Positions 1,584 to 16,063 of a stretch of 16,063 nucleotides of DNA are shown piece by piece. Where the stretch lies: the IMG/VR virus record IMGVR_UViG_2609459830_000022. One strand, written 5' to 3'. The position numbers and the translations under genes were made by a program. The DNA is from a virus. Its lineage: Duplodnaviria; Heunggongvirae; Uroviricota; Caudoviricetes. Below the pieces are notes generated by a model, which saw only the letters and a list, made by a program, of their open reading frames with translations, had not been told where the DNA came from and did no database searches. Numbering within the stretch: the first letter of the stretch is position 1; every line of letters starts with the position of its first letter.

Positions 1584-1611
1584 GAAACAACGTGGAACAA
1601 ATAGACACAAG
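1584..1611. repeat. Phased TTGTT/AACAA repeat cluster, site A (3 units at 10-bp spacing, AACAA on plus strand)
   Basis: gaaacaacgtggaacaaatagacacaag. The reverse complement reads TTGTGTCTAT TTGTTCCACG TTGTTTC and is near-identical to site D (14521..14543). Confidence 0.6.
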
Positions 1612-1951
1612 AAATATACAGGCGGGTAATCTTTCCAGGGGGAAGCGCACCAATTCATGAGGGGCGTTAATGTCGATATGGGGATCCCCATAACGGGGCT
1701 ACCGGATTTTTTTTCCGGTTAACTGTTAATCAGGCTGGTGGGTTTTACCTGTTCGGTAGGTGTTATGATTATCGTAATACCTTTCCCCCAGTGGGGTAAA
1801 AGCTCCAACCGTAACGATGTTCGTTGTGGTTGCCTTGATGGTCTGCGTGGTCATTATGACCATTCAGAATATGAAGGGTGACGCTTCCGACTTCCTCAAA
1901 TTGAGGTTTCCGAAAATATCAGCGGGTTAGCGATTAATCTGACCATTAATT

Positions 1952-1974
1952 AAACTACGAAAATTTCGTAGTTT
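1952..1974. repeat. Perfect 11-bp inverted repeat separated by 1 nt (aaactacgaaa a tttcgtagttt)
   Basis: Read directly from the sequence. It lies about 90 nt downstream of the last minus-strand late gene (stop at 2063) and has no flanking T-tract, so it is not a canonical intrinsic terminator. Confidence 0.5.
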
Positions 1975-2062
1975 GTGAATATATTCCGGCCTTCTGGTTA
2001 ACAGTCCTCAGATGTGAGGGATGTAGCCAGCGCAATTTTGCGTTATCGGGAATATCAGCAAG

Positions 2063-2344
2063 TTACCGCCGTAACCGCTCCGGCTTCTTCCAGTGGTACG
2101 TGATTTTCTCCTTCTCCCGATACAGTTCAACGCGGCGATTGTAGGCCAGCATTTCCAGAACGCGGATCCGTATGTCGCGCATATCCGCATCATTAAGCTG
2201 GATACCATCACGGCGCATCACCTCAGCAACAACACGCGCATAATTTTCGGCTGTCACGCTGTCCGGCTGCGTGGTCTGTTCGTCAGCCTGCTGGCTGATT
2301 CCAGAGACGCGGCGGATTAATCGCAGTATTTCGGCTTCTGTCAT
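2063..2344 (-). CDS. Hypothetical protein (93 aa), last gene of the packaging operon
   Basis: ATG at 2344 preceded by GAGGT Shine-Dalgarno at 7 nt spacing, 14 nt downstream of the TerL stop. No recognisable motif. Confidence 0.5.
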   Translation of the reverse strand: MTEAEILRLIRRVSGISQQADEQTTQPDSVTAENYARVVAEVMRRDGIQLNDADMRDIRIRVLEMLAYNRRVELYREKEKITYHWKKPERLRR

Positions 2345-2357
2345 GCTGCTGACCTCA

Positions 2358-4019
2358 TTACACCCCGCTAAATTCTTCCAGTTTCTGGCGGTGGCTGTCG
2401 CTTATATCAAAAGCAAAATCCTCATGCTCTGCCTGGAATGTACCAAACGCCATCAGCGCCGCTACGCTCGGGTCTATCTTGTTCGGTGATTTTTTCTTGT
2501 TCGGCTTGATATTGGCGTTCGCGTCACTCTGCATCACGACGTTACTCATCGACCAGGACAACACCGGATCGCCACGATGCACAATCACCCTGCGGTTAAC
2601 AAAAACTTCGAACGATTTCGCCGCCGGACTGAATCTGAGGTAGGTTTGCGGGAACGGCTCCACCTCAAAACCTGCCCCCTGTAATTGCGTTCTGAGATGC
2701 GTGGCGTTCCACGTATCAAAGCCCACCAGCCTGATATTAAATTTCTCCGCGTCCTGCATGATGTCATCTCTGATCCGGTCGTAATCAATGCAGTCGCCAG
2801 GCGTTGTGCGTATCCAGCCTGCTTTAGCCCACTGACGATAGATGGCGCGGTTTTTATTGGCGGGGTTCTGTAGCTGAAATTCCGGCAGATAGTGACGGGA
2901 AACCAGCATAATGGTTTTACCGACCGGAAAGGCATAGCACACGCTGGAAATATCGCTGGTTGATGATAAGTCCAGCCCCGCGTAACACTCCTGGCCGTGT
3001 AAATCTTCCTCCGTGAACGTTCCGGCACACTCAGCCCATGCGCCGTTACCCATCCACGGGGTAGTCCCCTGACACCAGATATTAAATCGCTTTGTCATCA
3101 TCTCCACCCACTGCGACGGAATACCCCGCGCTTTCTGGATGGTTGAGGCCAGTTTTTCACGATCCACGGAAACATCGATGTTAGGGTTAGCCTTTATCCA
3201 CATCGCCGGATCATCAACCTCGTTTTCGTCGTCCAGCTCGTAAATCAGTACAAAAATTGAATCGTTGACCTCTTCGCCGTCCAGGATCTGGCAGCAATAA
3301 TCATAGTGCTGCTTACAGGCTGAAACGACGTTACTGCCCGATGTAGTAATGGCAAATAACAGCCCTTCGGGACGTGCGCCCATCCCCAGCTCAAGCGCGG
3401 AATAAACGCCGTTATCGGGGTGTAGGTGGTATTCGTCCACGATGGAAAGGCTGGGGTTTGTTCCCTCGATGGTTGCCGCTTTTGCTGCCAGCGGCTTTAA
3501 CAGGCTGTTGCTTTTCGGGTGCATCACCTTGTGGGCCTGAATATTCACCCGCCTGCGTAACGGTCGGGATAAAAGGCACATCTGACGCGCATCATCAAAA
3601 ACGATCCGCGCCTGGTCACGGCTCACCGCTGCGGTGTAAATATCCTGCTGCCCGTTCTCCATAATCAGAAACCAGTTAGCCAGAATCGCGGCGGTCGTGG
3701 ATTTCGCATTTTTGCGCGGCACTTCGATAAAGGCGCTCGTATATTTGCGCCGTCCGGTGGCCTTAACCTTAAAGCCGAGGATGCACGCAAAGGCGAACTG
3801 CTGCCACGGCTCCAGCTCAATGGGGCTACCGCGCATTGCGCCTTTTACGTGCGGGCACACCCTGGAAAAGGCAATAAACCGCTCCACAACCTCACGATCG
3901 AACGTGTAAAGGGGGCTTTCAAGGTCCGAAAAGTACCGTTTAACGGCCTGTTTCAGCCGTTTACAGGCCGGAATTTTGCCCGTTTTTACGTCTTCTGCGT
4001 ACTTATTCCAGGCGGTCAA
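2358..4019 (-). CDS. Terminase large subunit (HK97/Terminase_1 type), 553 aa
   Basis: Length and overall pattern typical of phage TerL with an N-terminal ATPase region and C-terminal nuclease region. The start is TTG at 4019 preceded by a GAGGA Shine-Dalgarno, overlapping the TerS 3-prime end by 17 nt. Confidence 0.88.
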   Translation of the reverse strand: MTAWNKYAEDVKTGKIPACKRLKQAVKRYFSDLESPLYTFDREVVERFIAFSRVCPHVKGAMRGSPIELEPWQQFAFACILGFKVKATGRRKYTSAFIEVPRKNAKSTTAAILANWFLIMENGQQDIYTAAVSRDQARIVFDDARQMCLLSRPLRRRVNIQAHKVMHPKSNSLLKPLAAKAATIEGTNPSLSIVDEYHLHPDNGVYSALELGMGARPEGLLFAITTSGSNVVSACKQHYDYCCQILDGEEVNDSIFVLIYELDDENEVDDPAMWIKANPNIDVSVDREKLASTIQKARGIPSQWVEMMTKRFNIWCQGTTPWMGNGAWAECAGTFTEEDLHGQECYAGLDLSSTSDISSVCYAFPVGKTIMLVSRHYLPEFQLQNPANKNRAIYRQWAKAGWIRTTPGDCIDYDRIRDDIMQDAEKFNIRLVGFDTWNATHLRTQLQGAGFEVEPFPQTYLRFSPAAKSFEVFVNRRVIVHRGDPVLSWSMSNVVMQSDANANIKPNKKKSPNKIDPSVAALMAFGTFQAEHEDFAFDISDSHRQKLEEFSGV

Positions 4020-4359
4020 GCTCGTCCTCTTCTTCTGTTTCCGGTGGATTTTTACGGCGGCTTATCGGGTCAAAACCGAGCAAAGAGGCCATTTTTATCA
4101 TCACTCTTTCAGCGTCGGATTTTGCGCTTAATGCGGGGTTTCTGCTCTCGCCGCCCTGACTGTTAACAATGCTGAACCCGCGCGCCGCAAGGTCTGCAAC
4201 GGCTTTCCGGTAAATGGAGTAATTGACGCAATACAGTTCCAGATTACTCCAGTCGGCGGGAGTCAGGTCACCCCGTTCCGCAAGCTGCCGCGATTTTTCC
4301 CGCCACTGCTTCACGGCGATATCATCCAGGTAGGCGGGGGCTTTCGGTGGTCTTGCCAT
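4003..4359 (-). CDS. Terminase small subunit, P27 family (118 aa)
   Basis: Sequence pattern (DLTPADWSNLELYCVNYSIYRKA ... LLGFDPISRRK) matches the P27-family phage TerS. ATG at 4359, TAA at 4003-4005, positioned directly upstream of TerL. Confidence 0.82.
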   Translation of the reverse strand: MARPPKAPAYLDDIAVKQWREKSRQLAERGDLTPADWSNLELYCVNYSIYRKAVADLAARGFSIVNSQGGESRNPALSAKSDAERVMIKMASLLGFDPISRRKNPPETEEEDELDRLE

Positions 4360-4399
4360 GCTTATTTTTTCGCCAGATTATTTTTCAAAAAATTCCCGT

Positions 4400-4480
4400 G
4401 CATAAAAATTTGAGGAGGCGTTCGGTTCCCGGCGGGGTCGGGTTTGTCCTGAAAACGCCCCCCACCCCGTCATACAGCCT
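4400..4480. other. Candidate cos / packaging-initiation region between HNH and TerS
   Basis: A 289-bp non-coding gap sits between the HNH stop (4649) and the TerS start (4359). It contains a G/C-rich segment (ccggcggggtcgggtttgtcct ... cgccccccaccccg) flanked by A/T-rich sequence. The HNH-cos-TerS-TerL arrangement is the standard layout in HK97-like cos phages. Confidence 0.4.
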
Positions 4481-4648
4481 CATCAGCGATTGCGGAAACA
4501 TTCCATAACCTCGCGGTCACGGTCGTTTAATCGCGTCGCTGTGATGCGTTCTGCGCGTCCTGATGCTTTATCTTTATGCCCTGTTTCCTGTGCCTTCCAT
4601 GCGTCACGCTGCCTTATCAGTCCACGGATAAGGCGGTTTTGTTCCCGC

Positions 4649-5089
4649 TCATTCATCAGCGTCATACATCCAGTTATTGCGGTTAGCGGCCCGTTCTTCC
4701 TCTTCACGAAATCCACCTGCGGCACGCTTGCTTTTTGTTGCCGGATCAAGCCATTTCGTTTTCTGGTTATGACACGCCTGGCACAATGGCTGATGGTTCC
4801 ATTCGGGCCAGAAGAGAACATCATCACCGCCATTAATCGGGATAATGTGATCCACCACCACGGCGGGCGTATATATCCCCTTCTCAAGGCATCGCACGCA
4901 TAACGGGTTTTTACTCAGATACATGGCGCGGTATTTGTCCCACTGTCTGGAGTACCCACGCGCGCGGCGGTGTCCTCGTCTGGCATCCTCTGCACGCCAT
5001 GCCGCCCGCCTGTGCTCCTCACACTTGCCGGACTTCACGCGCCTGTTACAGCCTGGTTCTGTGCATCGTCTTAATGGTTGCCACGGCAT
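4649..5089 (-). CDS. HNH endonuclease (146 aa), packaging-associated
   Basis: Cys pairs (CTEPGC, CVRC, CQAC) plus the D-H ... N ... H motif (VVVDHIIPINGG ... WNHQPLCQACHNQK). ATGA overlap with the upstream connector gene. Confidence 0.85.
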   Translation of the reverse strand: MPWQPLRRCTEPGCNRRVKSGKCEEHRRAAWRAEDARRGHRRARGYSRQWDKYRAMYLSKNPLCVRCLEKGIYTPAVVVDHIIPINGGDDVLFWPEWNHQPLCQACHNQKTKWLDPATKSKRAAGGFREEEERAANRNNWMYDADE

Positions 5090-5385
5090 CAGTACACCCC
5101 CACATCACGGTAAGCCGTCCAGAGTGCGCCTATCGTCATGGGTACGTGTGTTTTTGCGTTATCCGCGACAATCTGGCGATTCTCATACAGGTGAGCGATA
5201 AACATCATGCAGCCAATCTTTATGGCTGGCGTGAACCCCAGCCCGTCATCAAAGCGCCTGCCTATGTGTATCTGGCACGCCTCAAGCGATGCGGCAATGT
5301 ATCCGCTGATTAACTGGTCTTCCTCGTCGCCATCGATGCGGCAATGGAGTTTCACTTCTTCCAGGGTGATAAGTTCTTCTGTCAT
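5089..5385 (-). CDS. Head-tail connector protein (gp6-like), 98 aa
   Basis: N-terminal LITLEEVKLHCRIDGDEEDQLISGYIAAS pattern typical of the Phage_connect_1 family. ATGA overlap with the upstream adaptor gene. Confidence 0.72.
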   Translation of the reverse strand: MTEELITLEEVKLHCRIDGDEEDQLISGYIAASLEACQIHIGRRFDDGLGFTPAIKIGCMMFIAHLYENRQIVADNAKTHVPMTIGALWTAYRDVGVY

Positions 5386-5720
5386 TTTTCCGCGCCCTCA
5401 CGACAAAGAATTTCAAGGCGTGTCCTGGCGGCATCCGGCAGCGGCTGCCCGATGATATTCAGTACACGCCCCGCCAGCGGCCCCGTATTGACCTTTATCC
5501 GGCTGGTGGCGTTGATGTCCTTCCGGTACCGTATCCAGATCCTTACCGTACCAATCGCCAGCTCTGCACCCGATGAAATGGCCTCCTTGCTGCTGACCAT
5601 GTTCACGCTTGCCCAGAGTGTGTGACCGTCCTCCCACGTTTCGAGTATTTCGCCCGTCATGGCTCTGGTCTGTTTCAGGGTCTGAATCGTTACCCTGTCA
5701 CGCAGTCGCCCTATGTTCAT
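5382..5720 (-). CDS. Head-tail adaptor / head closure protein (112 aa from ATG 5720; alternative ATG at 5762)
   Basis: RVTIQ ... ETWEDGHTLWASV ... pattern of phage head-tail joining proteins. The ATG at 5720 overlaps the portal stop (ATGA coupling). Confidence 0.68.
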   Translation of the reverse strand: MNIGRLRDRVTIQTLKQTRAMTGEILETWEDGHTLWASVNMVSSKEAISSGAELAIGTVRIWIRYRKDINATSRIKVNTGPLAGRVLNIIGQPLPDAARTRLEILCREGAEK

Positions 5721-6928
5721 TCCGGTTTTTCTCCCTCGCTGATTTTTACTTCCTGTTTCCATGCCTGGCTGAACTCATCACCACCATCACGCGGAGACAA
5801 CCCTTCTCGTTCGCGGGCTTCGTTCGGGCACATAACACCGGATTTGATGCCTCGCTCATAGGTGGCAAAGCGTTCGCCAGGAGTGGCCCGTAACAGGTCC
5901 GCGCTGTCAAACTCCACCTGATACCGGATACCAGGTACAGGTGAGGCCACCAGCAGGGCGTTTTTTATCTGCTGCTCAAAGTTCGCCAGCCACGGGCGCA
6001 TCGTCATGGTGAGAAATGCGCGGCTTGCCTCGCTGAAATTGCTGTAGGTGCTGTTGCTGTATTCCTGCAAAAAAATCGGCGAGACGTTGAACATTCGGGC
6101 GATGTCTTCAATGGTGAAGCGACGGGAGGCCAGCCATTCAGCATCCTGATTACTCATGCCCAGCTGCTGATAGCTCATACCCCCTTCAAGGATGGGCGTT
6201 TTTCCGGCGTTTCTGGCCCCTTTATAGCGTTCCAGTGCGGCTAATGCCTGTTTGCCTTTCACGCCGTCCAGCCATTCGCCTGACGTGATAACCCCTGCCG
6301 CCATCATGCCATCACGCATCACGCTCGCGCCGTGGCGTTGTTGGGCCAGCCCAAGCCCCAGCGATTCGCGGCAGATGGTTACAGGTGAGCGCCCCATAAA
6401 GCCGTCATCCGTGGAGTAACGAAGGTGAAGTACTTCCCACGGTAAATAGTTGCGGGTGTTTCCGGTGTAGGCGTCAGTGATGCAATAGCGCCAGTTATGC
6501 TCACCTGTCTGCTCCACGTTCACCGACTGCGGCGGGTAAGGATGCAAAGCGATCGGAAAACCATCACGCCCCCACTGAATCACCGCATAAGCATTACCGT
6601 TTAACAGGCAGTGGCGGATCATCATTCGCTTAAACTGGTAGGGGGTCTGCCATGCGTTCGGGCGCTCGTTGAGGATGTGATCGACCGGATGAGAATCAAG
6701 CCACTCGCGGGCCTCCTTCCCCTTCTCATTGCGTACCAGGTACAGGTAACACGGCATGGTAGCCACCGCCTCAGAGATGACCGTGACGGCGTTCATGACG
6801 GCGGGCAGTGATTCCGCTGTCCCCGATGATACGTACTCACCCGCCCCCGTGTTCGATGTGCCAGCCAGCGCCATAAACTCATCAAGCGTCATGCTGCGCT
6901 GCTCTTTTTTTCTTCTGAAAGGCCACAT
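5717..6928 (-). CDS. Portal protein, HK97 family (403 aa)
   Basis: Size and sequence pattern of HK97-type portal. ATG at 6928 preceded by a GGGGGTG Shine-Dalgarno, 1 nt after the protease stop. Confidence 0.9.
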   Translation of the reverse strand: MWPFRRKKEQRSMTLDEFMALAGTSNTGAGEYVSSGTAESLPAVMNAVTVISEAVATMPCYLYLVRNEKGKEAREWLDSHPVDHILNERPNAWQTPYQFKRMMIRHCLLNGNAYAVIQWGRDGFPIALHPYPPQSVNVEQTGEHNWRYCITDAYTGNTRNYLPWEVLHLRYSTDDGFMGRSPVTICRESLGLGLAQQRHGASVMRDGMMAAGVITSGEWLDGVKGKQALAALERYKGARNAGKTPILEGGMSYQQLGMSNQDAEWLASRRFTIEDIARMFNVSPIFLQEYSNSTYSNFSEASRAFLTMTMRPWLANFEQQIKNALLVASPVPGIRYQVEFDSADLLRATPGERFATYERGIKSGVMCPNEAREREGLSPRDGGDEFSQAWKQEVKISEGEKPE

Positions 6929-6929
6929 A

Positions 6930-7502
6930 TCACACCCCCGCTAAATCCACCCACCAGCGGCGATTATCCGCACGCGGCATTTTTTCGGGGTGCTGCTCAT
7001 ACAGGGAACGGCGGGCCAGCTCCACGCCGGAATCGGGGTAAGCCGGTACCGATGTAACGGTAATTTCGTACAGTTCCGCCACCAGCACGGTGCGCACGCA
7101 TGGATCTGTTGTGGTATCCCATACATCCTTACGGGAGCGAAAGCCAAAGCTCATCCCCGAGATGTCCCCACGCTTAACCAGTTCGATAACGTCGCGCCCT
7201 GTACTGGTATCCGGTGGGGTCAGTTCAAAGCGTAACCCTGTTTCGTCCTCTTCCAGTTTCAGCGTGCCGGAACGGGTGCGCCCCAGTAACATGCTGTGGT
7301 CATGCTCATACAGGCCGCGAACGTCATTACCCGCCGCAAGCCACTCAGTAAACGCCCCCCGCTGGAATTTTTCGTAAAACTCCCCCCATAGCAGTTCTGA
7401 AAGCTTATCCCAGCGAACAACGTAGCCCGTCAGCGTACCGGCTCCGCTGGTAGTGATTTCCGATGACCGGATTTCCATACTCTTCATAATTTTTTCACCC
7501 AT
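6930..7502 (-). CDS. Prohead protease, HK97 family (S78); true start may be ATG 7487
   Basis: HDHSMLLGRT and GDISGMSFGF motifs characteristic of HK97 prohead protease. The first ATG (7502) lacks a Shine-Dalgarno; the second ATG (7487) has GGTGA upstream. Confidence 0.88.
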   Translation of the reverse strand: MGEKIMKSMEIRSSEITTSGAGTLTGYVVRWDKLSELLWGEFYEKFQRGAFTEWLAAGNDVRGLYEHDHSMLLGRTRSGTLKLEEDETGLRFELTPPDTSTGRDVIELVKRGDISGMSFGFRSRKDVWDTTTDPCVRTVLVAELYEITVTSVPAYPDSGVELARRSLYEQHPEKMPRADNRRWWVDLAGV

Positions 7503-7532
7503 AAAACACTAAAGGGGCTTTTAAGCCCCTTC
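7503..7532 (-). terminator. Intrinsic terminator-like hairpin between the major capsid and protease genes
   Basis: Minus-strand RNA reads AAGGGGCUU-AA-AAGCCCCUU (9-bp arms) followed by UAGUGUUUU, immediately after the capsid stop (7542-7544). Confidence 0.5.
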
Positions 7533-7541
7533 TGTATGCTG

Positions 7542-8699
7542 TTAATCGTCGTCCTGTGGCAGTTCCAGAATCTTGATCGCGTTCGAATCCACCACGCCAC
7601 CGCCTAAATATTTCTGCGTGAAAATTTTGATAAAGCCCGGCTCTGTCAGGTTGTCCGGTCTGGTGCGCACGCCCGTTTCATGATCAACGATGTAATAACC
7701 GCGTTTGAAGTCACCCAGGGCGATAACGTTATCCGGCATAAATTCCAGATACTCCACCGGAAGCCCCAGCAACGTATCAGGATCACCCGCCTGTAAACGG
7801 TCGCGCCAGATGTAATCGCCGTTCGCGTTCTTCACCTTCTGAAGTTTTGCCGCCGTCGTGGAGTTAACCACCCAGACCGCGTTTTTGCGGTATTTTTTAC
7901 GTAATGCAAATTTCAGGTCGATCAGCGGGTCCGCAGATGTCCACGCCAGAGATTCGGAAGGTTTAATTACCTGCAACGTACCAAAATCACGCTCTTTGTC
8001 GTTCTTCTCTGCACGGGGTACGGATAAAAAACCTTTTGCTTTTTTGTCACCGTCGCCCACAACCAGATCGCTTTCTTCGGTTTCCGTGAAGGTGTCGCCA
8101 ATCTCACCCGTCAGCCATGAAAGGATGTCCACATCGGAAAAATCCACGATTTCCTGTGTGGTGCGCGGGTACGCATAGACCGGATACAGCTTAATGCTCA
8201 CCTCGTTAATCTGCGGGGTGCTGGTCTGTTCGCGTGCCTTACCCTCTTCACCGTGGTTAACGGTCGCACCGCCAGCGGAAACAAGCTGCTTAAACTCGTT
8301 GCTGCTGATTTTCTTCACGGTACAGATGCGGCGCATGGTGGATTCATCCGTCAGCATTCGCATGATTTCGGTGTTCAGTTCAGGGATAACGGTATAACCA
8401 CCATCAGCGGGAACGCCTGTACTTAATGCGCGGGTTTCACCTGTCAGAATGTAGTTGCGGAGTTCTGCGGGGTCAGTGGTCTGACTGCTTTTACCTGGCT
8501 TGCTGCGCTCTTCGTCTGCAATGGCTTCAAGGCGGGAAATGTCTTTATCGAGGGATTCAGCTTTAGCGCGTAATTCGTCAAATTTTGCGCCCTCAGCATC
8601 GTTAAGACTGCGGTTTTCTTTTTCCGCGTTCTCCAGCATGTCGCGCATCTGATTTTTAATGGCGGTTTTCTGCTGGCGTAATTCGATTATTCTCGGCAT
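7542..8699 (-). CDS. Major capsid protein, HK97 fold, with N-terminal coiled-coil scaffold (delta) domain; 385 aa from ATG 8699
   Basis: N-terminal charged helical region (IIELRQQKTAIKNQMRDMLENAEKENRSLNDAEGAKFDELRAKAESLDKDISRLEAIADEE) followed by a typical HK97-like capsid body. The upstream extension to 8747 in the ORF track starts at GTG and runs through a hairpin, so ATG 8699 is preferred. Confidence 0.9.
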   Translation of the reverse strand: MPRIIELRQQKTAIKNQMRDMLENAEKENRSLNDAEGAKFDELRAKAESLDKDISRLEAIADEERSKPGKSSQTTDPAELRNYILTGETRALSTGVPADGGYTVIPELNTEIMRMLTDESTMRRICTVKKISSNEFKQLVSAGGATVNHGEEGKAREQTSTPQINEVSIKLYPVYAYPRTTQEIVDFSDVDILSWLTGEIGDTFTETEESDLVVGDGDKKAKGFLSVPRAEKNDKERDFGTLQVIKPSESLAWTSADPLIDLKFALRKKYRKNAVWVVNSTTAAKLQKVKNANGDYIWRDRLQAGDPDTLLGLPVEYLEFMPDNVIALGDFKRGYYIVDHETGVRTRPDNLTEPGFIKIFTQKYLGGGVVDSNAIKILELPQDDD

Positions 8700-8940: not shown

Positions 8941-8950
8941 TAATTTACAA

Positions 8951-8980
8951 AACATGACAAAAAGCCGGATTGCTCCGGCT
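8951..8980 (-). terminator. Rho-independent terminator after the PerC-like gene
   Basis: Minus-strand RNA: AGCCGGA-GCAA-UCCGGCU followed by UUUUUGUCAUGUUUUG, beginning 7 nt after the TAA at 8987-8989. Confidence 0.7.
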
Positions 8981-8986
8981 GTGTGA

Positions 8987-9259: not shown

Positions 9260-9269
9260 CGTCCCCCCC

Positions 9270-9680: not shown

Positions 9681-9689
9681 ATTGCCACC

Positions 9690-9995: not shown

Positions 9996-10243
9996 GATTC
10001 CACCTCTCCGGTTTTAACGTTGATGGTTGTTACCTGTTCCGCTTCGGCAATCTCCCGTTCTGTCAGCGTGGCAAAGTTTGCCGCCGCCGTGGTCATGAAT
10101 GCGCTTATCAGGTCGGGATGTTCCTTCGCGTATCCTTCCCGCGTGTGGCGGTCTATCGTTCTGATTGCCACCTTTAAGGTGTGCTCAGTCATGTCTAACG
10201 CTTTATATTTTGGCTCTGTTCTGTCTCTGCGTTTTTGGGTCAT
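9992..10243 (-). CDS. Hypothetical protein (83 aa from ATG 10243; ORF track extends to GTG 10273)
   Basis: ORF immediately downstream of the iteron region. Start choice is uncertain: ATG at 10243 and ATG at 10192 are both possible. Confidence 0.4.
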   Translation of the reverse strand: MTQKRRDRTEPKYKALDMTEHTLKVAIRTIDRHTREGYAKEHPDLISAFMTTAAANFATLTEREIAEAEQVTTINVKTGEVES

Positions 10244-10253
10244 TTCTCGCAAC

Positions 10254-10447
10254 CTCTCACTTTTTCGCCTCACTTTTTCAAGCGTCTCACTTCGTCGCAG
10301 CTGGGATTTTCGGTTTTTCTATGTGTGTGTTTCATAAGTATTTTTTTACCCCTCACTTTTGAGGATGTATACAGGTCGAAAAGTGAGGGAGAGCAGGCTA
10401 ATTTTGGCCCTCTTTCTATCCACCTCGCTTTTGCTCCTCACTTTTAT
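10254..10447. repeat. Iteron cluster, putative replication origin (7 copies of CTCACTTTT, one inverted, flanking an A/T-rich core)
   Basis: Copies at about 10256, 10269, 10286 (imperfect), 10352, 10379 (inverted), 10424 (imperfect) and 10437. The A/T-rich stretch is at 10300-10350. The cluster sits immediately 3-prime of the primase-helicase gene (stop 10444-10446). Confidence 0.7.
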
Positions 10448-11844
10448 AGCGGTGCTACATCATCCCCATCGATACGAATAACCCCATCTTTTTCCAGCTT
10501 GTACAGCCAGCGCCGGAAGTTTTTCATTTCATACCCCAGCTTTTTCATGTCATCACGTAACAGCGGGATCGTGCACTTGTCGCCGTTCTGTGTGCGTGAA
10601 CGGATGCACCCCCATAGCGCGGTATGGTTTTCCGTCTTGTTCCCTGCCTCCTCGATGCGCTCCAGTTCAACAGGAGGGCGCGGATCATCCACCACCACCA
10701 GCGACGTGATTAATTCACCGTCAGCGTCGGTAAAAAGCTCCACCACGCGTAAGTCATATGCGGCTTCTTTGAGTTCCTCCGCGTCCTTCATTTTGGTGCA
10801 TGAGATAACCAGCGCTTCGCTTCCTGCGTCCTCCCTGCGTATCCGGTATTCAGCATCCAGCGAAGCACGAAATGCACTGGAACCGCGCGCGCCTTTCGTC
10901 TCATCCTTGCCGGAATGGTGAACCACCAGCACCGTGGCCCCTGTGCGTCGTTTCAGTTCGTCACAACCACGGATAAACGCCCCCATATCACGGGAATCAT
11001 TTTCATCATTCCCACCAAAGCAACGCGCCAGCGTATCCAGAATAATCATGCGTACAGGTTTACCCGTTTCCCGCTCCACCTGACGGGCAGCGATAACCAT
11101 TTCATCAACATCAAGCGGGGCAGCCGGAAAGATGGGGCGGTTTACCAGATACAGATTTTTCACCTGCTCATCGTGCACAACCTCCCAGGCTTTTACACGA
11201 CGCGGAACACCTATACCGCCTTCACCGACCACATAGAGAACCGCACCATGTGCAACCCTGCGGCCTCCCCACTGGCGACCAGTGGCAACATGGCACGCCC
11301 ACGATCCGGCAAGGAATGATTTATAGGACCCGCTAGCCCCGTATATGCTGCATAGCGATACCGCCGGAATAATCCCCTTAACCACGTAATCCAGTTGCGT
11401 GTCGTATCCGGTAGATCCAACGCTCATCGGTAGCGTGGTTTTTCGCTGGTGGTTTTTTTCTTCCGCCGGCTCTTTCCCACGCACCCGTTCCAGGTATTCG
11501 CGCCAGTTCTCCCGCATATGGCTGTGCATCCCTTCGGGGTAATAATTCGCATCAGTTACACCCGCCGCCGCCAGCTTGTGCGCAATGGCATTAATATTTG
11601 ATGGCCTGATGTGGCCTGCCTTGTACAGCCGGACACAATAGCGCCCCTCGTCGATGATTCTCAGGTCTGCCAGTTCATCCAGTTGATCATCAGCCAGCAC
11701 AACGGGAGGCACATTATCGCCAGCCAGTCGCCCGTCCTGTTCCTGCCACTGTTTCGCATGTGCCCAGGCATCACTACCCGCAAAAATAATGACTTCGGTC
11801 ATCTTGTCGTAAGGCTGTTTTTTTAAGTTCGGTGCGCTTTTCAT
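10444..11844 (-). CDS. Replication initiator: Toprim-like N-domain + RecA-like (RepA/AAA_25-type) ATPase + C-terminal winged-helix; PICI pri-rep-like
   Basis: P-loop-like IYGASGSYKSF, RepA-like segment ILDTLARCFGGNDENDSRDMGAFIRGCDELKRRTGATVLVVHHSGKD, N-terminal VIIFAGSDAWAHA Toprim-like segment. Followed by the iterons. Confidence 0.78.
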   Translation of the reverse strand: MKSAPNLKKQPYDKMTEVIIFAGSDAWAHAKQWQEQDGRLAGDNVPPVVLADDQLDELADLRIIDEGRYCVRLYKAGHIRPSNINAIAHKLAAAGVTDANYYPEGMHSHMRENWREYLERVRGKEPAEEKNHQRKTTLPMSVGSTGYDTQLDYVVKGIIPAVSLCSIYGASGSYKSFLAGSWACHVATGRQWGGRRVAHGAVLYVVGEGGIGVPRRVKAWEVVHDEQVKNLYLVNRPIFPAAPLDVDEMVIAARQVERETGKPVRMIILDTLARCFGGNDENDSRDMGAFIRGCDELKRRTGATVLVVHHSGKDETKGARGSSAFRASLDAEYRIRREDAGSEALVISCTKMKDAEELKEAAYDLRVVELFTDADGELITSLVVVDDPRPPVELERIEEAGNKTENHTALWGCIRSRTQNGDKCTIPLLRDDMKKLGYEMKNFRRWLYKLEKDGVIRIDGDDVAPL

Positions 11845-12140
11845 TTCTTGCCCCTGAATCCGTTAACCATGGTTTTCAGCTTCTGGATGTTTGCCCGTGC
11901 CCTGGCGTTGCTGGTGGGCACGTTATGCGGCGCGGTCTGTACCAGAGAAAAATCACGCCGGAACTGATAAACAGGCATCACGCAATCATATTCGTAACCT
12001 TCACGGCGGTAAGTTACGCACCGTCCCGCCACGCCCTTAATCATTACCGTGCCGCCGTACTGGTCGCGGTAAATATCACCGCGCATAAATTTAGGGTGAG
12101 TGTTGCCACTGGCAGTTAAGCCAGAATATTTAAGTTTCAT
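11841..12140 (-). CDS. Hypothetical protein (99 aa), translationally coupled to the primase-helicase
   Basis: ATG at 12140; its stop overlaps the primase start (ATGA). Confidence 0.5.
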   Translation of the reverse strand: MKLKYSGLTASGNTHPKFMRGDIYRDQYGGTVMIKGVAGRCVTYRREGYEYDCVMPVYQFRRDFSLVQTAPHNVPTSNARARANIQKLKTMVNGFRGKK

Positions 12141-12145
12141 TATTT

Positions 12146-12379
12146 TTATTCTCCGGTGTGCTGTTCGTTATATCTGTCGTGCAATGTCTCTATTTCCTGC
12201 AACTCATTTATTACAGGCTCAAGAAGCGTTATTAATGATGTAATAATCCGCGTTTTTTTTGCATTACGTTCATTATCGCCAAAGGATTCAAGGCACATCC
12301 GCAATATTTCGTACATACCTTCAGCGTAAGCAAGGGCACTAAATGCGCGGTCTATTGTTTCAAGATAAATATCACGCAT
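12146..12379 (-). CDS. Small hypothetical protein (77 aa), member of a tandem paralog trio
   Basis: ATG at 12379 with GGGGA Shine-Dalgarno. Shares the MRD start and an EI-R ... I--LI pattern with the next gene. Confidence 0.45.
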   Translation of the reverse strand: MRDIYLETIDRAFSALAYAEGMYEILRMCLESFGDNERNAKKTRIITSLITLLEPVINELQEIETLHDRYNEQHTGE

Positions 12380-12380
12380 A

Positions 12381-12602
12381 TTAATCCCCGTCCGTTGTTT
12401 TTCTTAAAACAGCTTCTGTCACGAAATCAGCATAGTTAGCGGCAATATCAAGAATATTTAGCCCTGTACCTCTGTGCTCATCAGTGCAAAGAAAGAAAAA
12501 AGCCACCCGCATAATTTCAGATATTGACGAAAGCGCATCAGCCGCATCATCAGGAACGCCGGAAAATTCTTGTTTCAGGGAATTAAAACGATCATCACGC
12601 AT
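12381..12602 (-). CDS. Small hypothetical protein (73 aa), paralog of the 77-aa and 80-aa neighbours
   Basis: ATG at 12602 immediately preceded by a G9 homopolymer on the coding strand (C9 at 12605-12613 on plus). Confidence 0.45.
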   Translation of the reverse strand: MRDDRFNSLKQEFSGVPDDAADALSSISEIMRVAFFFLCTDEHRGTGLNILDIAANYADFVTEAVLRKTTDGD

Positions 12603-12817
12603 AACCCCCCCCCATTTTCACAATCAGCAACAAGAATATTTTTAGCGTCATTCAGCGACCGCGTTGCGATGTATCGGATACATTCCAGGGCGAACGTTGT
12701 CCGGTCTTTCTGTTCTTCTCCCTGCGCAAGCTCTGCCGTGCATTCAATATCAATAAGCGCGTGCATCAGCGTAGTGAGCGCGGCGGCGGCTGCGTCCGGT
12801 GTGGTTTTATTGCACAT
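12575..12817 (-). CDS. Small hypothetical protein (80 aa from ATG 12817), third paralog
   Basis: ATG at 12817 preceded by a strong AGGAGG Shine-Dalgarno. Segment TPDAAAAALTTL resembles VPDDAADALSSI of the 73-aa gene. Its C-terminus (GGG) reads through the G9 tract. Confidence 0.4.
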   Translation of the reverse strand: MCNKTTPDAAAAALTTLMHALIDIECTAELAQGEEQKDRTTFALECIRYIATRSLNDAKNILVADCENGGGLCVMIVLIP

Positions 12818-12980
12818 GGCACACCTCCTGACGAATACGGGCGACAAAAATCAGATGTGCGTGCGGCAGCTGTGCACGTGCTTCGCGCTCAGTGGCAGCG
12901 GTAACGGTGAATATTGCAATACTGTCTGTCAGGCACTGCATAAAGCGCCAGACAAAATAAGGGCGTGTGAATACAGCCAT
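12807..12980 (-). CDS. Icd-like small protein (host cell-division-inhibitor-like), copy B, 57 aa
   Basis: ATG at 12980 with TAGGAGCC Shine-Dalgarno. Motif FVWRF ... TAATEREARAQLP ... LIFVARIRQ is shared with copy A. Family assignment is from memory of the conserved motif. Confidence 0.45.
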   Translation of the reverse strand: MAVFTRPYFVWRFMQCLTDSIAIFTVTAATEREARAQLPHAHLIFVARIRQEVCHVQ

Positions 12981-13266
12981 GTGAAAGGCTCCTACAGTAA
13001 TTTTAAGGAGTCTCGCTACTACGCTGTCAAACATGGTGGCGAGACGTAACAGGGTTGACAGACTGGCACTGTAGAGACCAGCGAGCGCAAAGGCTCCCCC
13101 GTTACGCCCCGCCATAATGCGGGTATGGGTAGGTTTACGGACACAAAAAAACCGCATATCGGAATGTAAGCGGCTGTCCGCTACAGTATTCAGGCTGTCA
13201 AACCCGGTCGCCATGTGGGCGACGGGGGAAGCATACAGCCCCGTGATAATTTTTTGCAAGCGGTTT

Positions 13267-13464
13267 TTACGCATGATGTGACCCCTGACGAATACGGGCG
13301 GCAAATACAGCAACACAACCTGACGGGCAACGGCTACGCGCTTCGCGTTCCGTCCAGGCGGTTACGTGGATGATTTGAGATTCTCCGGCACTCAGTGCCA
13401 GAAAACGCCACACAAAGGCCGTTTGTGTGTGTACAAGGTGTGGTATATGATTTACGGCAACCAT
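13267..13464 (-). CDS. Icd-like small protein, copy A, 65 aa
   Basis: ATG at 13464 with TAGGAGCC Shine-Dalgarno. Motif FVWRF ... TAWTEREARSRCP ... AVFAARIRQ. Confidence 0.5.
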   Translation of the reverse strand: MVAVNHIPHLVHTQTAFVWRFLALSAGESQIIHVTAWTEREARSRCPSGCVAVFAARIRQGSHHA

Positions 13465-13537
13465 AACGGCTCCTAGTTTACGTTGTTGGTTAGAAGCCCT
13501 GCGAGTGGTAATGACACTTGCGGGGCTTTGCTTTTTT
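13458..13537 (+). ncRNA. Candidate small cis-antisense RNA overlapping the start and Shine-Dalgarno of Icd-like copy A
   Basis: Plus-strand promoter-like TTGTGT (13423-13428), 17-nt spacer, TATGAT (13446-13451). Plus-strand-specific terminator at 13496-13537. No plus-strand ORF lies in between. Confidence 0.3.
13496..13537 (+). terminator. Rho-independent terminator, plus-strand specific
   Basis: 12-bp stem gccctgcgagtg / cacttgcggggc (two G-U wobbles on the plus RNA, which are C-A and U-C mismatches on the minus RNA), 7-nt loop, then TTTGCTTTTTT. Confidence 0.6.
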
Positions 13538-13553
13538 AAGTGCTCTTGTGTTA

Positions 13554-13600
13554 AGGTGACCACCTAACAATGGAAAGGCTAATTCAATAGGTGACCACTT
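13554..13600. promoter_or_regulatory. Two operator-like palindromes AGGTGACCACCT (13554-13565) and AGGTGACCACTT (13589-13600) in the divergent control region
   Basis: Inverted-repeat arms AGGTG/CACCT with centres 35 bp apart. The second overlaps the Shine-Dalgarno and TTG start of the RHH gene. A TTGACA hexamer on the minus strand (13605-13600) lies between them. Confidence 0.5.
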
Positions 13601-13790
13601 GTCAACAATCAAACGCGATAAAAGCCCTAAAGGGGACGGGCAATCCCCACAATTCAGAATGCGAATTTCTCCAGAGCTAAAAGAGCAATTCGACAAAGAA
13701 GCACAGAGCGACGGCATAAGCCTAGCCAACTGGCTTAAAGAGTTGGGGCGCACTGAACTAAAGCGGCGCGGCATAGAACCCAAAGGATAA
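13599..13790 (+). CDS. Arc/Mnt-like ribbon-helix-helix DNA-binding protein (63 aa, TTG start)
   Basis: SPQFRMRISPELKEQFDKEAQSDGISLANWLKELG matches the beta-strand / helix A / helix B pattern of P22 Arc (PQFNLRWPREVLDLVRKVAEENGRSVNSEIYQRV). Start must be upstream of the PQF strand; TTG at 13599 has AGGTGA 4 nt upstream. Confidence 0.55.
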   Translation: MSTIKRDKSPKGDGQSPQFRMRISPELKEQFDKEAQSDGISLANWLKELGRTELKRRGIEPKG

Positions 13791-13847
13791 AAACTATCAG
13801 CGCCGTGGTGTGAGGTATTACGGCGCATTGCTATGCAGGACAACACA

Positions 13848-14021
13848 ATGACCGATAAAGAATTGACCAAAACATTATCACCGGCACGGAAAAGACGGCG
13901 CAGAAAGATAGAGCATGAATCAGAAAGATTCGCGCCATGTGCTTTTGCCCTTGAGCAATTCCTTAAAGAGTATAGGGAAAAGCGCTCATTGCAGGTATGG
14001 CAACGAACTGAACCAGACTGA
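13848..14021 (+). CDS. Small basic hypothetical protein (57 aa from ATG 13848; ORF track starts at ATG 13833)
   Basis: ORF downstream of the RHH gene in the same plus-strand unit. AGGA 8 nt before ATG 13848. Arg/Lys-rich N-terminal half. No recognised family. Confidence 0.3.
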   Translation: MTDKELTKTLSPARKRRRRKIEHESERFAPCAFALEQFLKEYREKRSLQVWQRTEPD

Positions 14022-14115
14022 TTGCATTGCCCACCAGCCTGATAGCGGCTATCATCCCCGTGCTTATGTTTGGGATCACATACACATAAGGCGCAGCGGG
14101 TTATCTGTTCAGAAA

Positions 14116-14144
14116 GGCGGCTCCATTTCGGGGCCGCTTTTTTT
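14116..14144 (+). terminator. Rho-independent terminator closing the plus-strand RHH unit
   Basis: ggcggctcc-atttc-ggggccgc followed by T7. The stem has one G-U wobble on the plus RNA that is a mismatch on the minus RNA. Confidence 0.7.
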
Positions 14145-14290
14145 ATGCCTGAAAAACCCCAATTTTGTGGTTTTCCAGTCTCACCAGGGCGAACGAATCC
14201 CCGCCCACGTTCTGGCGTATATTCAATCTTCATGGTTATAGCTCTGTGTTCAGATGATTGATGTGTGGCGGCTGCGTGCCGCCAGCGTGA

Positions 14291-14479
14291 TTAATGAACT
14301 GCCTTGCAGCTATCCTTCCAGGCCAGAACCTCGGATAAAGACCAGCCAACGGAACGACCGCCAAGTTTACGACGTGATGGGAATTGTCCGGCCTTTTCCA
14401 GGCGGTAGCGACACGTACGGCTAAGGCCGGTTAGTTTTTCGCATTCTTTTTCACGTATAAACCGATCAGTGCTTAACAC
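14291..14479 (-). CDS. alpA: AlpA-family phage/island regulatory protein (62 aa, GTG start)
   Basis: LTGLSRTCRYRLEKAGQFPSRRKLGGRSVGWSLSEVLAWK matches the AlpA helix-turn-helix family pattern. A G7 tract serves as the Shine-Dalgarno. Located directly after the integrase gene, as in P4-like and PICI elements. Confidence 0.8.
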   Translation of the reverse strand: MLSTDRFIREKECEKLTGLSRTCRYRLEKAGQFPSRRKLGGRSVGWSLSEVLAWKDSCKAVH

Positions 14480-14520
14480 TATTGCCCCCCCTTTCGTTTC
14501 TTAAAGAGTCATCAGGTGTC

Positions 14521-14543
14521 TTATTGTGTCGTATTGTTCCCGC
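14521..14543. repeat. Phased TTGTT repeat cluster, site D (2 units, TTGT on plus strand)
   Basis: ttATTGTGTCgtATTGTTCCcgc, near-identical to the reverse complement of site A. It lies 45-65 bp upstream of the alpA start. Confidence 0.55.
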
Positions 14544-14753
14544 TAGAGTGATGAATGGCAAATATTGAGGATGTATGATTTACAGAAAATGAAACAGTAA
14601 GAATAAAATCTTTTAAATTCATGTTAATACAAAGGCATAAAATATTGTTTCATGCCTTTTTTCTCGCTCTTTAAAGAGTGATTCGCTAGTGTATAAAAAA
14701 CCAGTGACACATTAAAAATCAGCCACTTATAAATCTGTATGCTTTTTCGCCTC

Positions 14754-14803
14754 TTGTTCGTGGTTGTTCCACATTGTTGCTCATTGTTGCACGTTGTATC
14801 TGT
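14754..14803. repeat. Phased TTGTT repeat cluster, site C (5 tandem 10-bp units)
   Basis: TTGTTCGTGG TTGTTCCACA TTGTTGCTCA TTGTTGCACG TTGTATCTGT with exact 10-bp register, in the int-alpA intergenic region. Confidence 0.65.
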
Positions 14804-14812
14804 TCGCATATA

Positions 14813-14828
14813 CAGTATGCGCATACTG
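14813..14828. repeat. Perfect 16-bp palindrome cagtatgcgcatactg
   Basis: Read directly; located 18 nt downstream of the integrase stop and adjacent to repeat site C. Confidence 0.6.
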
Positions 14829-14845
14829 AAAAAACACGAAAAAAA

Positions 14846-16063
14846 TTATTTTCTTCTGGCTACTGGTAGCGTGGTTACGTTTTCATGTGTTCCCGCCAGT
14901 ATCCCTAACCGCTCCGTCCACATATCCAGCGCATTGCGTTTAGCATCCAGATAACGGGAATGATTATAAACTCGCTGCATTCCTGGCATCTGGTGGCCTG
15001 TAAGCTGCTCCACGACATGCGGATCAACGCCTAAATCGTTCAGCATGGTTGTAAAGGTGCGCCGGATGTCATGCAGTGACCAGTGAGGATGATTAAGCCT
15101 CCTGTGCGCTAATCTTCCATACTGCGATACGCTGGCCTCCTGTTTCACTTCCCCCAGCAATAAGCCCGTGTGCCTGTTCTGCTCCACCAGCTGCGTGACG
15201 AACGGCAGGATCGCTTCCGGTATGGGCCGGAATATTGCGACCTTCGTTTTGCTGTGCTCCTTCGGAACGGTCCATAGCATTTCCGTAAAATCCCACTCCC
15301 CGATCTCCGATAACCTCAGTTCTACCGTTCTGGCTCCGAAGACAATCAGGAGGCGGATTAACGCGACGTAGTAAGGGGAGAATATTTTTTTGTCCAGTGC
15401 CTGCAATAATTCGCCAAGTTCTTTGTTACTTAAGACACGTTCGCTTATATCCGGTTTTTTCCCAACGTCCGCCACGTTCAGATCGTCCAGAACGTTGCTG
15501 ATTGCATAGCGCCGCCTACGGCAGAACTTAAGCGCCTGTTTGCACGCCTGTAGCACGAATCCGGCAGTAACAGGCGTTCGCTTTGCCACCTGGTCAAAAC
15601 AGGCCAGCCAGTGCCGTAGCTCGCATTTATCCAGCGGCATAGCACCAATCTGCTGTATTACGTGATTATTAAGTCGCCTTTTCAGGGCGATATAATCCAC
15701 GCGGTTTTCCTTTACGTAATACTCAAGCCAGTAGGTGAGCGCATCGCCAACCGTTACCGGCTTTAACGCTTCCTGTACGGTGTAATTAAGCTCATGACGT
15801 GGATTTTTCCCCTCTGCCAGCCATGCGCGACACTGGGCGGCTTTTTCCCTGGCTGATTTCAGGCTCAGATCAGGATAACTTCCCAGCTTAATGCGTTCGG
15901 GTCGTGTCTCCCTTCCCGTTCCGGCCCTGTATGTGAAATACCAGGTCAATTTCCCTGATGTTAAATATTTCACGCTCAGGTTTCCGCCATCACTATAAAA
16001 CGTGTTTTTCTCCGCTGGCTTACCATGAAGTTTCCTTAGCAAGGTATCGCTCAGTTTGTTCAT
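14846..16063 (-). CDS. int: Tyrosine recombinase / integrase, P4-type with N-terminal arm-DNA-binding domain (405 aa)
   Basis: N-terminal FYSDGGNLSVKY ... WYFTYR arm-binding-type domain. Catalytic region with GARTVELR, HDIRRTF and the HSRY tyrosine. ATG is the last 3 nt of the window (16061-16063). Confidence 0.93.
   Translation of the reverse strand: MNKLSDTLLRKLHGKPAEKNTFYSDGGNLSVKYLTSGKLTWYFTYRAGTGRETRPERIKLGSYPDLSLKSAREKAAQCRAWLAEGKNPRHELNYTVQEALKPVTVGDALTYWLEYYVKENRVDYIALKRRLNNHVIQQIGAMPLDKCELRHWLACFDQVAKRTPVTAGFVLQACKQALKFCRRRRYAISNVLDDLNVADVGKKPDISERVLSNKELGELLQALDKKIFSPYYVALIRLLIVFGARTVELRLSEIGEWDFTEMLWTVPKEHSKTKVAIFRPIPEAILPFVTQLVEQNRHTGLLLGEVKQEASVSQYGRLAHRRLNHPHWSLHDIRRTFTTMLNDLGVDPHVVEQLTGHQMPGMQRVYNHSRYLDAKRNALDMWTERLGILAGTHENVTTLPVARRK

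Follow-up and report, generated by a model that had tools for sequence, protein, structure and literature searches.

Locus and element

The stretch of DNA analysed here (the window) is the 16,063-nucleotide record IMGVR_UViG_2609459830_000022, a viral sequence assigned to the Caudoviricetes. Sequence comparison supports the assignment of positions ~1460 to 16063, together with ~196 bp past the window end, to a tail-less capsid-forming phage-inducible chromosomal island (cf-PICI) that is a close variant of EcCIEDL933. The latter is the prototype cf-PICI of E. coli O157:H7 EDL933 and lies between roxA and phoQ (10.1101/2022.09.08.507074; 10.1101/2025.02.11.637232). An earlier note, made from the letters of this DNA alone, had described a tail-less, capsid-encoding cf-PICI-like island beside phoQ, and this description was confirmed: the element is a relative of EcCIEDL933 with the same phoQ junction and the 11 core genes. 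The cf-PICIs are a known family, the element is a mosaic member of it at the prototype's own phoQ junction, and its novelty is low; the only new points are its hybrid flanks and a satellite-mediated inversion that we infer. Overall, the element is very probably a cf-PICI of ~14.8 kb from the EcCIEDL933 lineage, present as a recombinant copy with two different attachment (att) cores and probably trapped with its gene set intact.

Gene content and family assignment

Family membership was defined as in SatelliteFinder (PMC10085698), in which 11 core components are required and tail/holin components are forbidden. All 11 were present, each above the curated Pfam cut-offs, and the forbidden components were absent. 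The integrase stands at one end of the element, with chromosomal genes directly beyond it on the source contig, and an AlpA-type regulator is encoded nearby. The element has its own replication protein and origin, of a type that differs from the DUF927 protein of the prototype, and its own major capsid protein, prohead protease and portal. Head-tail components were recognised by the families Phage_HCP (1e-22) and Phage_connect_1 (1.3e-11), and HNH, TerS and TerL, the last with both ATPase and nuclease domains, complete the set. The core-to-core length of ~14.8 kb (1460 to window-equivalent 16259) agrees with the unit size of about 15 kb that suits a T=4 head; the prototype measures 15.4-15.5 kb. 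A matching att direct repeat was not found at the two ends, which concerns the mobility of this copy and not its family origin.

The close match to the published prototype bore out the comparison with capsid-forming PICIs that the earlier note had proposed, and its structural open reading frames (ORFs) do match capsid, portal and terminase families in profile searches. The int and alpA genes, the single-strand DNA-binding protein (SSB) and the complete HK97-type head and packaging set that it had listed were all recovered on the minus strand above curated Pfam cut-offs. Its description of one minus-strand element holds for these head, packaging and replication genes but fails for the plus-strand RHH ORF at 13599-13790. 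The earlier note had made no mention of the PerC-family gene at 8987-9259, of the two Icd-like ORFs or of the C4 antisense RNA.

Tail, tape-measure, baseplate, holin and lysin families gave no match among the ORFs scanned (Pfam, PHROGs and NCBIfam), in agreement with the absence of such genes reported before. Tail and lysis genes were likewise absent from the flanks of the source contig, where only chromosomal genes were found on both sides. No tRNA gene is present in the window, and no defence gene was detected by PADLOC in ten accessory ORFs; the remaining small ORFs belong to PHROG families of unknown function. Nearly all coding after phoQ is on the minus strand, and beyond position ~2000 both GC skew and AT skew are below zero.

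In a DNA search, some match to the element was obtained in 1832 of 5426 complete E. coli genomes, and in 108 of them at a coverage of at least 80%. A DNA search of a phage database returned fragments only, no phage record covering more than 14% of the element.

Packaging and capsid genes

The features of the packaging and capsid half are listed below; identities are to the EcCIEDL933 homologues.

2063-2344, minus strand: conserved ORF of 93 residues after terL (phrog_1561, 1.5e-55; 93.5% identical)
2358-4019, minus strand: large terminase TerL (Pfam TerL_ATPase, 1.3e-25; TerL_nuclease, 9.9e-51; 97.8% identical)
4003-4359, minus strand: small terminase TerS, P27/Terminase_4 type (Pfam Terminase_4, 1.3e-23; 100% identical)
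4360-4482, unstranded: predicted cos region, a 123-nt gap between the 60-residue ORF and terS, with a G/C-rich dyad GGGGTGGGGGGCG...CCCGACCCCGCC
4483-4665, minus strand: ORF of 60 residues (phrog_3173, 9.6e-35; 95% identical)
4649-5089, minus strand: HNH endonuclease, packaging accessory (Pfam HNH, 1.8e-08; 99.3% identical)
5089-5385, minus strand: gp6-like head-tail connector (Pfam Phage_connect_1, 1.3e-11; 98.0% identical)
5382-5720, minus strand: head completion protein or head-tail adaptor, 112 residues (Pfam Phage_HCP, 1e-22; 96.4% identical)
5717-6928, minus strand: portal protein (Pfam Phage_portal, 1.7e-90; 99.3% identical)
6930-7502, minus strand: HK97-type prohead serine protease (Pfam Peptidase_S78, 7e-48; 97.4% identical)
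7542-8699, minus strand: HK97-family major capsid protein, 385 residues (Pfam Phage_capsid, 2e-61; 99.7% identical to gene 1786)
8987-9259, minus strand: PerC-family regulator, 90 residues from Met41 of a long ORF (Pfam PerC, 2.3e-43)

In a search of solved structures, the capsid protein was matched over residues 1-385 to PDB 9gyi, 'Major head protein' (E 3.2e-256), which appears to be the published T=4 capsid of EcCIEDL933. The SxGxxAD motif is present in the window protein as STGVPAD. The capsid protein of EcCIEDL933 undergoes N-terminal cleavage, and its T=4 shell measures 47.5 nm (10.1101/2025.02.11.637232). The 60-residue ORF at 4483-4665 would be the counterpart of EcCIEDL933 'gene 1792', because of its place in the gene order when counted from the capsid gene as 1786; transfer of an EcCIEDL933 1792 mutant is poor (10.1101/2022.09.08.507074).

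The cos site, for which the earlier note had given no coordinates, probably lies upstream of terS, within 4360-4482. Systems of the HK97 type have cos between the HNH gene and terS (HNH-cos-terS order). The linear record of vB_KppS-Ant (LR881103.1) has both of its termini inside the gap homologous to 4360-4482; as evidence for the position of cos these record ends are suggestive only. This 16.5 kb Klebsiella record, named as an 'Escherichia phage' and filed as an induced phage, encodes an integrase, a primase, capsid, protease, portal, connectors, an HNH-like protein, TerS and TerL. Behind terL it also has a 765-residue ORF with a tape-measure annotation, which should be taken with caution. 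The record looks like a packaged cf-PICI filed among phages.

The capsid and protease genes are separated by a terminator-like hairpin (7511-7532), possibly an attenuator that sets the capsid to protease ratio. The PerC gene is just upstream of the capsid operon and is followed by another terminator-like hairpin (8980-8963). PerC homologues (the pch genes) control virulence and curli in O157 strains. A link between the gene at 8987-9259 and O157 pchE was not established, and the literature examined gives no location for pchE.

Attachment sites, integrase and flanking chromosome

The following features define the ends of the element.

1-1461, plus strand: phoQ, intact, 486 residues (from the translation; matching genes in relatives are annotated phoQ)
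1460-1469, unstranded: att core of the phoQ/roxA type, AAATATGTCC, overlapping the phoQ stop codon; element boundary
1470-1600, unstranded: core-adjacent arm; its tandem (T/A)ACTACAC(T/C) repeat (1544-1567) likely provides arm-type sites for the integrase
14846-16063, minus strand: tyrosine integrase of the tqsA-site allele type, 405 residues (Pfam Arm-DNA-bind_3, 1.3e-18; Phage_integrase, 3e-16)

On the phoQ side the element starts at the core AAATATGTCC (1460-1469), ~120 bp before the start at 1584 given in the earlier note. The same 10-mer flanks a related island in strain JNE132847; this element, 95.6% identical to that of the window, lies between phoQ and roxA, its int gene being followed directly by roxA-pepT-potA. 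An empty site was reconstructed as a 320-bp query in which a single core joins phoQ to roxA, and was found at a coverage of at least 80% in 4822 of 5426 complete E. coli genomes, the matches listed being 100% identical and in one piece. In strain H19, an element 95.9% identical to that of the window splits tqsA.

The last letter of the window belongs to the start codon of int, and the other junction was located on the source contig, JNMP01000003.1 (GCA_000700405.1), which is 100% identical to the window as checked over 1-11000 and 3490-16063. The gene order on this contig is icd-rluE-nudJ-mnmA-hflD-purB-phoP-phoQ, then the element, then a C-terminal fragment of tqsA ('tqsA) followed by pntB-pntA-ydgH-ydgI-folM. 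The earlier note had named tail or lysis genes beyond the integrase as the sign of an ordinary prophage; 'tqsA, pntB, pntA, ydgH, ydgI and folM are found there instead. It had also expected a matching att direct repeat beyond 16063. This repeat is absent: the ~7 kb that follow int contain no further copy of AAATATGTCC, and the int-side junction is of the tqsA type, identical to the tqsA junction of H19; its core, TGCTGTTAT, falls at window-equivalent 16251-16259. The two ends of the element thus carry different att cores, AAATATGTCC beside phoQ and TGCTGTTAT beside 'tqsA.

The integrase agrees with the junction beside it. It is 98.8% identical to the tqsA-site integrase of H19 and 92% identical to the integrases of both phoQ/roxA-site islands (EDL933 and JNE132847), the differences being concentrated in the N-terminal arm-binding domain (residues 1-62), and the exact protein adjoins tqsA/pntAB in all six of the places shown. 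Integrases that are 92-99% identical to one another serve two att sites, roxA/phoQ (core AAATATGTCC) and tqsA (core TGCTGTTAT), and the arm repeats change in step with the integrase type (ATTAACTACACC versus GTGACTACACC). The exact integrase is also found on a classical, non-capsid-forming PICI, and together with three different replicase types.

The ACTACACC repeats of 21-23 bp, present at 1544-1567 and upstream of int in relatives, were considered as the att repeat and ruled out, being internal and conserved between islands at different sites. The motif pair of 1544-1567 recurs just upstream of int in JNE132847, H19 and one further relative. These repeats are probably arm sites of the integrase and not the crossover core.

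Replication module and left-half genes

The remaining protein-coding features with family matches are as follows.

9270-9680, minus strand: SSB (Pfam SSB, 4.2e-14)
10256-10445, unstranded: replication origin, six CTCACTTTT iterons around an AT-rich stretch
10444-11844, minus strand: RepA-like P-loop helicase (AAA_25), replication initiator, 466 residues (Pfam AAA_25, 2.4e-43; phrog_2850, 5.7e-267)
11841-12140, minus strand: DUF4222 protein (Pfam DUF4222, 1.5e-23)
13599-13790, plus strand: RHH/Arc-like small ORF (PHROG Arc-like repressor, 5.1e-07; Pfam HicB, 4.9e-04, below cut-off)
14291-14479, minus strand: AlpA regulator (Pfam Phage_AlpA, 5.4e-17; 100% identical to EcCIEDL933 AlpA)

The iteron origin that had been proposed to follow the replicase was recovered. 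The 9-mer CTCACTTTT occurs seven times in the window when up to one mismatch is allowed, and six of these copies, five in one orientation and one inverted, fall in 10256-10445, directly past the stop codon of the helicase gene. Relatives with the RepA-type helicase have 5-6 copies of CTCACTTTT in the same place; EcCIEDL933, with its DUF927 replicase, has none, and has 11 copies of TAACCCGCA. Iterons thus track the replicase type across relatives, and the two are therefore exchanged as a single module. The helicase is 100% identical to its homologue in strain H19, and only its first 122 residues resemble the DUF927 protein of EcCIEDL933 (67% identity). The earlier note had called it a Toprim/RecA-like initiator. 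The P-loop part of this description stands, as an AAA_25 domain, and the Toprim part is unsupported: residues 1-141 gave no Pfam family at E<=10, and the sole N-terminal signal was to a PHROG primase family.

The RHH ORF overlaps an ORF of 247 residues on the minus strand (13490-14233). Synonymous and non-synonymous differences numbered 4:8 for the former and 5:10 for the latter and did not discriminate between them, the two frames having their third codon positions in common. The plus-strand RHH ORF is favoured as the real gene only because its stop codon falls on a module breakpoint, similarity to the H19 island beginning at 13793, and because RefSeq annotates small YlcI/YnfO genes at the same position and on the same strand in relatives.

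The intergenic region between alpA and int (14480-14845) is AT-rich, with a GC content of about 0.38, and contains two tandem repeats, TTGTTGCACA (3.4 copies, 14764-14797) and GTGTCGTATT (2.2 copies, 14516-14537); two promoter-like sites lie upstream of alpA. The repeats and promoter-like sites within 14480-14845 are candidate sites for a helper-phage factor that activates alpA. AlpA is required for the induction of EcCIEDL933 (10.1101/2022.09.08.507074).

C4 antisense RNA and icd cassette

An immunity-type cassette lies between the DUF4222 gene and the RHH ORF.

12807-12980, minus strand: Icd-like ORF 2, 57 residues (NCBIfam phage_ICD_like, 2.8e-13)
13032-13119, minus strand: C4-type antisense RNA (Rfam RF01695, 69.1 bits; gathering score 45)
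13181-13236, minus strand: a1/b1 target sites upstream of C4 (Rfam RF03163 at 13236-13187, 46.8 bits; gathering score 46.7)
13267-13464, minus strand: Icd-like ORF 1, 65 residues (NCBIfam phage_ICD_like, 1.4e-17)

Alignment with P1 and D6 revealed a complete immI layout of the P1/D6 type on the minus strand of 12807-13236, in the order a1, b1, C4, a2, b2 and icd-like ORF. The C4 fold, the a and b targets and the icd-like ORF that characterise a P1-type immI are thus all present. The order is that of P1, P7 and D6, and the DNA of the c4 region is 79-82% identical over about 190 nt to those of P1 and D6. The b2 target (12997-12992) overlaps the Shine-Dalgarno sequence of Icd-like ORF 2, and the start of the next ORF, of 80 residues (12817), overlaps the stop codon of Icd-like ORF 2, as P1 ant1 overlaps icd. 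The b and b' sequences are CTGTAG/CTACAG in the window, TTAGTG/CACTAA in P1 and CTTACG/CGTAAG in D6: each of the three has a b' loop sequence of its own, and in each both b targets are complementary to it. This covariation argues for a function, and for a private specificity, of the C4 RNA of the window.

Unlike in P1, P7 and D6, no ant homologue follows the cassette; small unknown ORFs, the DUF4222 gene and the replicase gene lie downstream. Since these downstream genes lead to the replicase, the C4 RNA may keep the replication operon silent, in the manner of the CI RNA of P4.

A 98-residue ORF that contains Icd-like ORF 1 is 98% identical to its EcCIEDL933 homologue, which is annotated as Icd-like in EDL933. 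No C4 RNA was detected by Rfam in five relatives (EcCIEDL933, JNE132847, H19 and both copies of ESDR8), so the cassette is not family-wide, and DNA similar to it occurs in 605 complete E. coli genomes. Rfam matches to C4/isrK in Gram-negative PICIs have been noted earlier (PMC10111431). At 13493-13529, just upstream of Icd-like ORF 1, there is a strong hairpin of 15 bp that, in the plus-strand reading, has a T-run behind it.

Comparison with known systems

The window and EcCIEDL933 have the phoQ-side junction and att core in common, and the gene order int-alpA-icd-...-DUF4222-rep-ori-...-SSB-PerC, followed by capsid-protease-portal-adaptor-connector-HNH-orf60-TerS-TerL-orf93, is the same in both. 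DNA identity is 99% over window positions 1-1865, 97.1% over 2051-8985 and 95.8% over 13282-16060, and the packaging proteins are 93.5-100% identical. No match was obtained over about 10245-11490 (replicase and origin) or 12155-13282. The first of these regions reflects the replicases, a 466-residue RepA/AAA_25 helicase with CTCACTTTT in the window versus a 710-residue DUF927 protein with TAACCCGCA in EcCIEDL933; the second contains small ORFs that differ from those of the prototype, and the C4 RNA/icd cassette is found in the window only. The integrase is of the other allele type, as described above, and the outer flank is 'tqsA, not roxA. A further gap in the alignment, of ~330 bp, sets window 8986-9035 against EcCIEDL933 8611-8937, and the alignment blocks on its two sides share 27 nt of the window (8959-8985).

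The closest integrase and replicase were those of the tqsA-site islands. The H19 cf-PICI (NZ_AP027165.1) encodes an identical RepA, and other tqsA-site islands encode an integrase 100% identical to that of the window; the int-side att junction of H19 and of related tqsA-site islands is also the same. These islands, however, have tqsA fragments on both sides and the TGCTGTTAT core at both ends, whereas the other end of the window element is of the phoQ type. A pair of islands in strain ESDR8, 96.9% identical to the window, provides the same phoQ/island/'tqsA-pntB linkage and also the reciprocal roxA/island/tqsA'-mdtJ linkage. The phoQ-side copy of ESDR8 has IS21 and IS110 insertions and lacks a C4 cassette detectable by Rfam.

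The head and packaging genes belong to the same protein families as those of phage HK97, with HNH-dependent cos packaging, the HK97 fold and a cleaved N-terminal domain of the capsid protein. Unlike HK97, the element has no tail, lysis or lysogeny-switch genes, and the shell of the prototype is T=4 instead of T=7 (10.1101/2025.02.11.637232). Identity to phage homologues is reported to be low in general, mostly below 40% (10.1101/2022.09.08.507074).

Predicted life cycle

By homology to EcCIEDL933, the gene set would support the following cycle. A helper phage would switch on AlpA, and the integrase and AlpA would excise the island, which would then be replicated by the RepA-like helicase from the iteron origin just downstream of the helicase gene. 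The capsid operon (capsid protein with a cleavable N-terminal domain, S78 protease, portal, adaptor and connector) would build small T=4 heads; HNH, TerS and TerL would cut at an island-specific cos site and fill these heads with island DNA only. The filled, tail-less heads would be freed by helper-driven lysis and joined to the tails of a helper siphovirus. EcCIEDL933 itself is induced by helpers HK106 and HK446 in an AlpA-dependent manner; its transfer requires every one of its packaging genes and the tail genes of the helper, but not the helper's capsid genes (10.1101/2022.09.08.507074).

Proposed recombination between two islands and probable loss of excision

The orientation of the island at roxA/phoQ is opposite to that at tqsA. 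Where both sites are occupied, homologous recombination between the inverted islands would therefore invert the segment between them, giving phoQ-...int-'tqsA and roxA-int...-tqsA' hybrids. Both products are present in the chromosome-level assembly of ESDR8 (NZ_CM169472.1). One, at 415-429 kb, reads roxA, int (of the EDL933 allele)...terL, tqsA'-ydgV-mdtJ; the other, at 910-928 kb, reads phoQ, terL...int, 'tqsA-pntB, and about 481 kb separate the two. The capsid, protease, portal, adaptor, connector and HNH proteins of the two ESDR8 hybrids are identical (common WP accessions), a pattern compatible with recombination between the copies or with gene conversion.

The window has the composition of the second hybrid. 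In sliding-window comparisons, 1500-2000 was nearest to EcCIEDL933, 8000-12000 was about 100% identical to a tqsA-site island and 14500-16063 was 100% identical to tqsA-site islands, while 2500-8000 was 96-99% identical to everything. On these identities the switch between parents falls within 2000-8000, the most conserved stretch of the element and a plausible crossover zone. The phoQ-side end and some part of the adjoining packaging half would thus have come from an island at the roxA/phoQ site and the integrase end from a tqsA-site island, both having been joined by homologous recombination between inverted islands that would also have inverted ~480 kb of the chromosome. Presumably, on the K-12 map, this segment includes the terminus/dif region. 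In general terms, two inverted cf-PICIs may act as portable homology, recombination flipping ~480 kb and leaving both satellites locked until a second recombination reverses the inversion; we consider the arguments for and against this general model to be evenly balanced.

Tyrosine recombinases normally need identical crossover sequences in the partner sites (PMC10111431). Because the cores AAATATGTCC and TGCTGTTAT are mismatched, precise excision is unlikely under this rule, and the copy is probably unable to excise by site-specific recombination, a trapped satellite with an intact gene set. No earlier description of a satellite-mediated inversion was found in a limited literature search.

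Alternative explanations

Several observations weigh against the interpretation of the element as a trapped, recombinant cf-PICI of the EcCIEDL933 lineage. Its replication module differs from that of the prototype, and the ~330 bp with a 74-residue hypothetical ORF that lie between the PerC and capsid genes in EcCIEDL933, JNE132847 and H19 are missing from the window and from some relatives. Induction, capsid formation and the identity of the helper are extrapolated from EcCIEDL933 on the strength of packaging proteins 93.5-100% identical. Integrases more than 92% identical across the two sites might tolerate a core mismatch, in which case excision could still occur. The hybrid pattern is rare, occurring in one of the 60 best-matching complete genomes (ESDR8), and the draft state of the source assembly leaves room for a chimera formed from two near-identical islands. 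The last two points lead to the most serious rival, according to which the element is an intact, mobile cf-PICI at phoQ/roxA and the phoQ/'tqsA linkage an assembly error arising from two near-identical islands in one genome. Related draft assemblies do break inside the element (one contig ends at window 11742, and a 6.1 kb contig ends at 8411 and 14535), which points to another, similar copy in those strains. Nevertheless, both the integrase allele and the arm on the int side are of the tqsA type, the type to which every shown occurrence of the exact integrase belongs. The TerL sequence of the window occurs in one contig only within the collection, so at least the TerL part is not a collapsed repeat, and ESDR8, assembled to chromosome level, has both the same linkage and its reciprocal product, so the rearrangement occurs in nature. 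An assembly error is accordingly held to be unlikely, though it deserves more weight than the two explanations that follow.

As an alternative to a dedicated satellite, a decayed prophage of the HK97 type that lost its tail and lysis modules by deletion is very improbable. The head and packaging genes do belong to HK97-type phage families, and the search of solved structures also matched HK97-family capsids of the Rhodobacter gene transfer agent (6tb9, 6tba; E ~1e-46). A unit of ~15 kb with constant ends, however, recurs at no fewer than two att sites and reaches high coverage in the 108 complete genomes counted above; its left half has the int-alpA-rep layout of PICIs, and phage records align with it only in part. 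The published prototype is a functional satellite whose weighted gene repertoire relatedness (wGRR) to phages is at most 0.09 (10.1101/2022.09.08.507074), and contiguous tail, tape-measure and lysis modules, the mark of a complete prophage, are found neither in the element nor on either flank of the source contig. Still less credible is a classical satellite that remodels helper capsids (a PICI of the EcCICFT073 type or a P4-like element), even though the int-alpA-rep left half is common to classical Gram-negative PICIs, the classical PICI with the identical integrase carries lambda E-like capsid, gpD-like and Nu1-like genes, and a C4/CI-type immunity RNA is present, as in P4. Against it stand the portal, protease, capsid, adaptor, connector, HNH and TerL genes of the element itself; in SatelliteFinder, such components disqualify an element from the PICI class (PMC10085698). 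Families for capsid-size redirection gave no match among the ORFs scanned, a scan in which P4 sid, psu and delta were not searched by name.

Implications

For annotation, the element should be labelled a mosaic variant of EcCIEDL933, neither a prophage remnant nor a new system; a reader with the sequence alone was able to recognise the cf-PICI family. Within ~15 kb, the capsid and packaging block is almost invariant, while three other parts have been swapped: the replicase and its matching iterons, the C4/icd cassette, and the integrase arm-binding domain with the att core. If the proposed recombination is correct, inversion would be a cost of satellites that occupy several sites, and possibly also an invertible chromosomal switch. 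Near-identical satellites at two sites could then drive half-megabase inversions and strand themselves, which would affect estimates of how many satellites are mobile.

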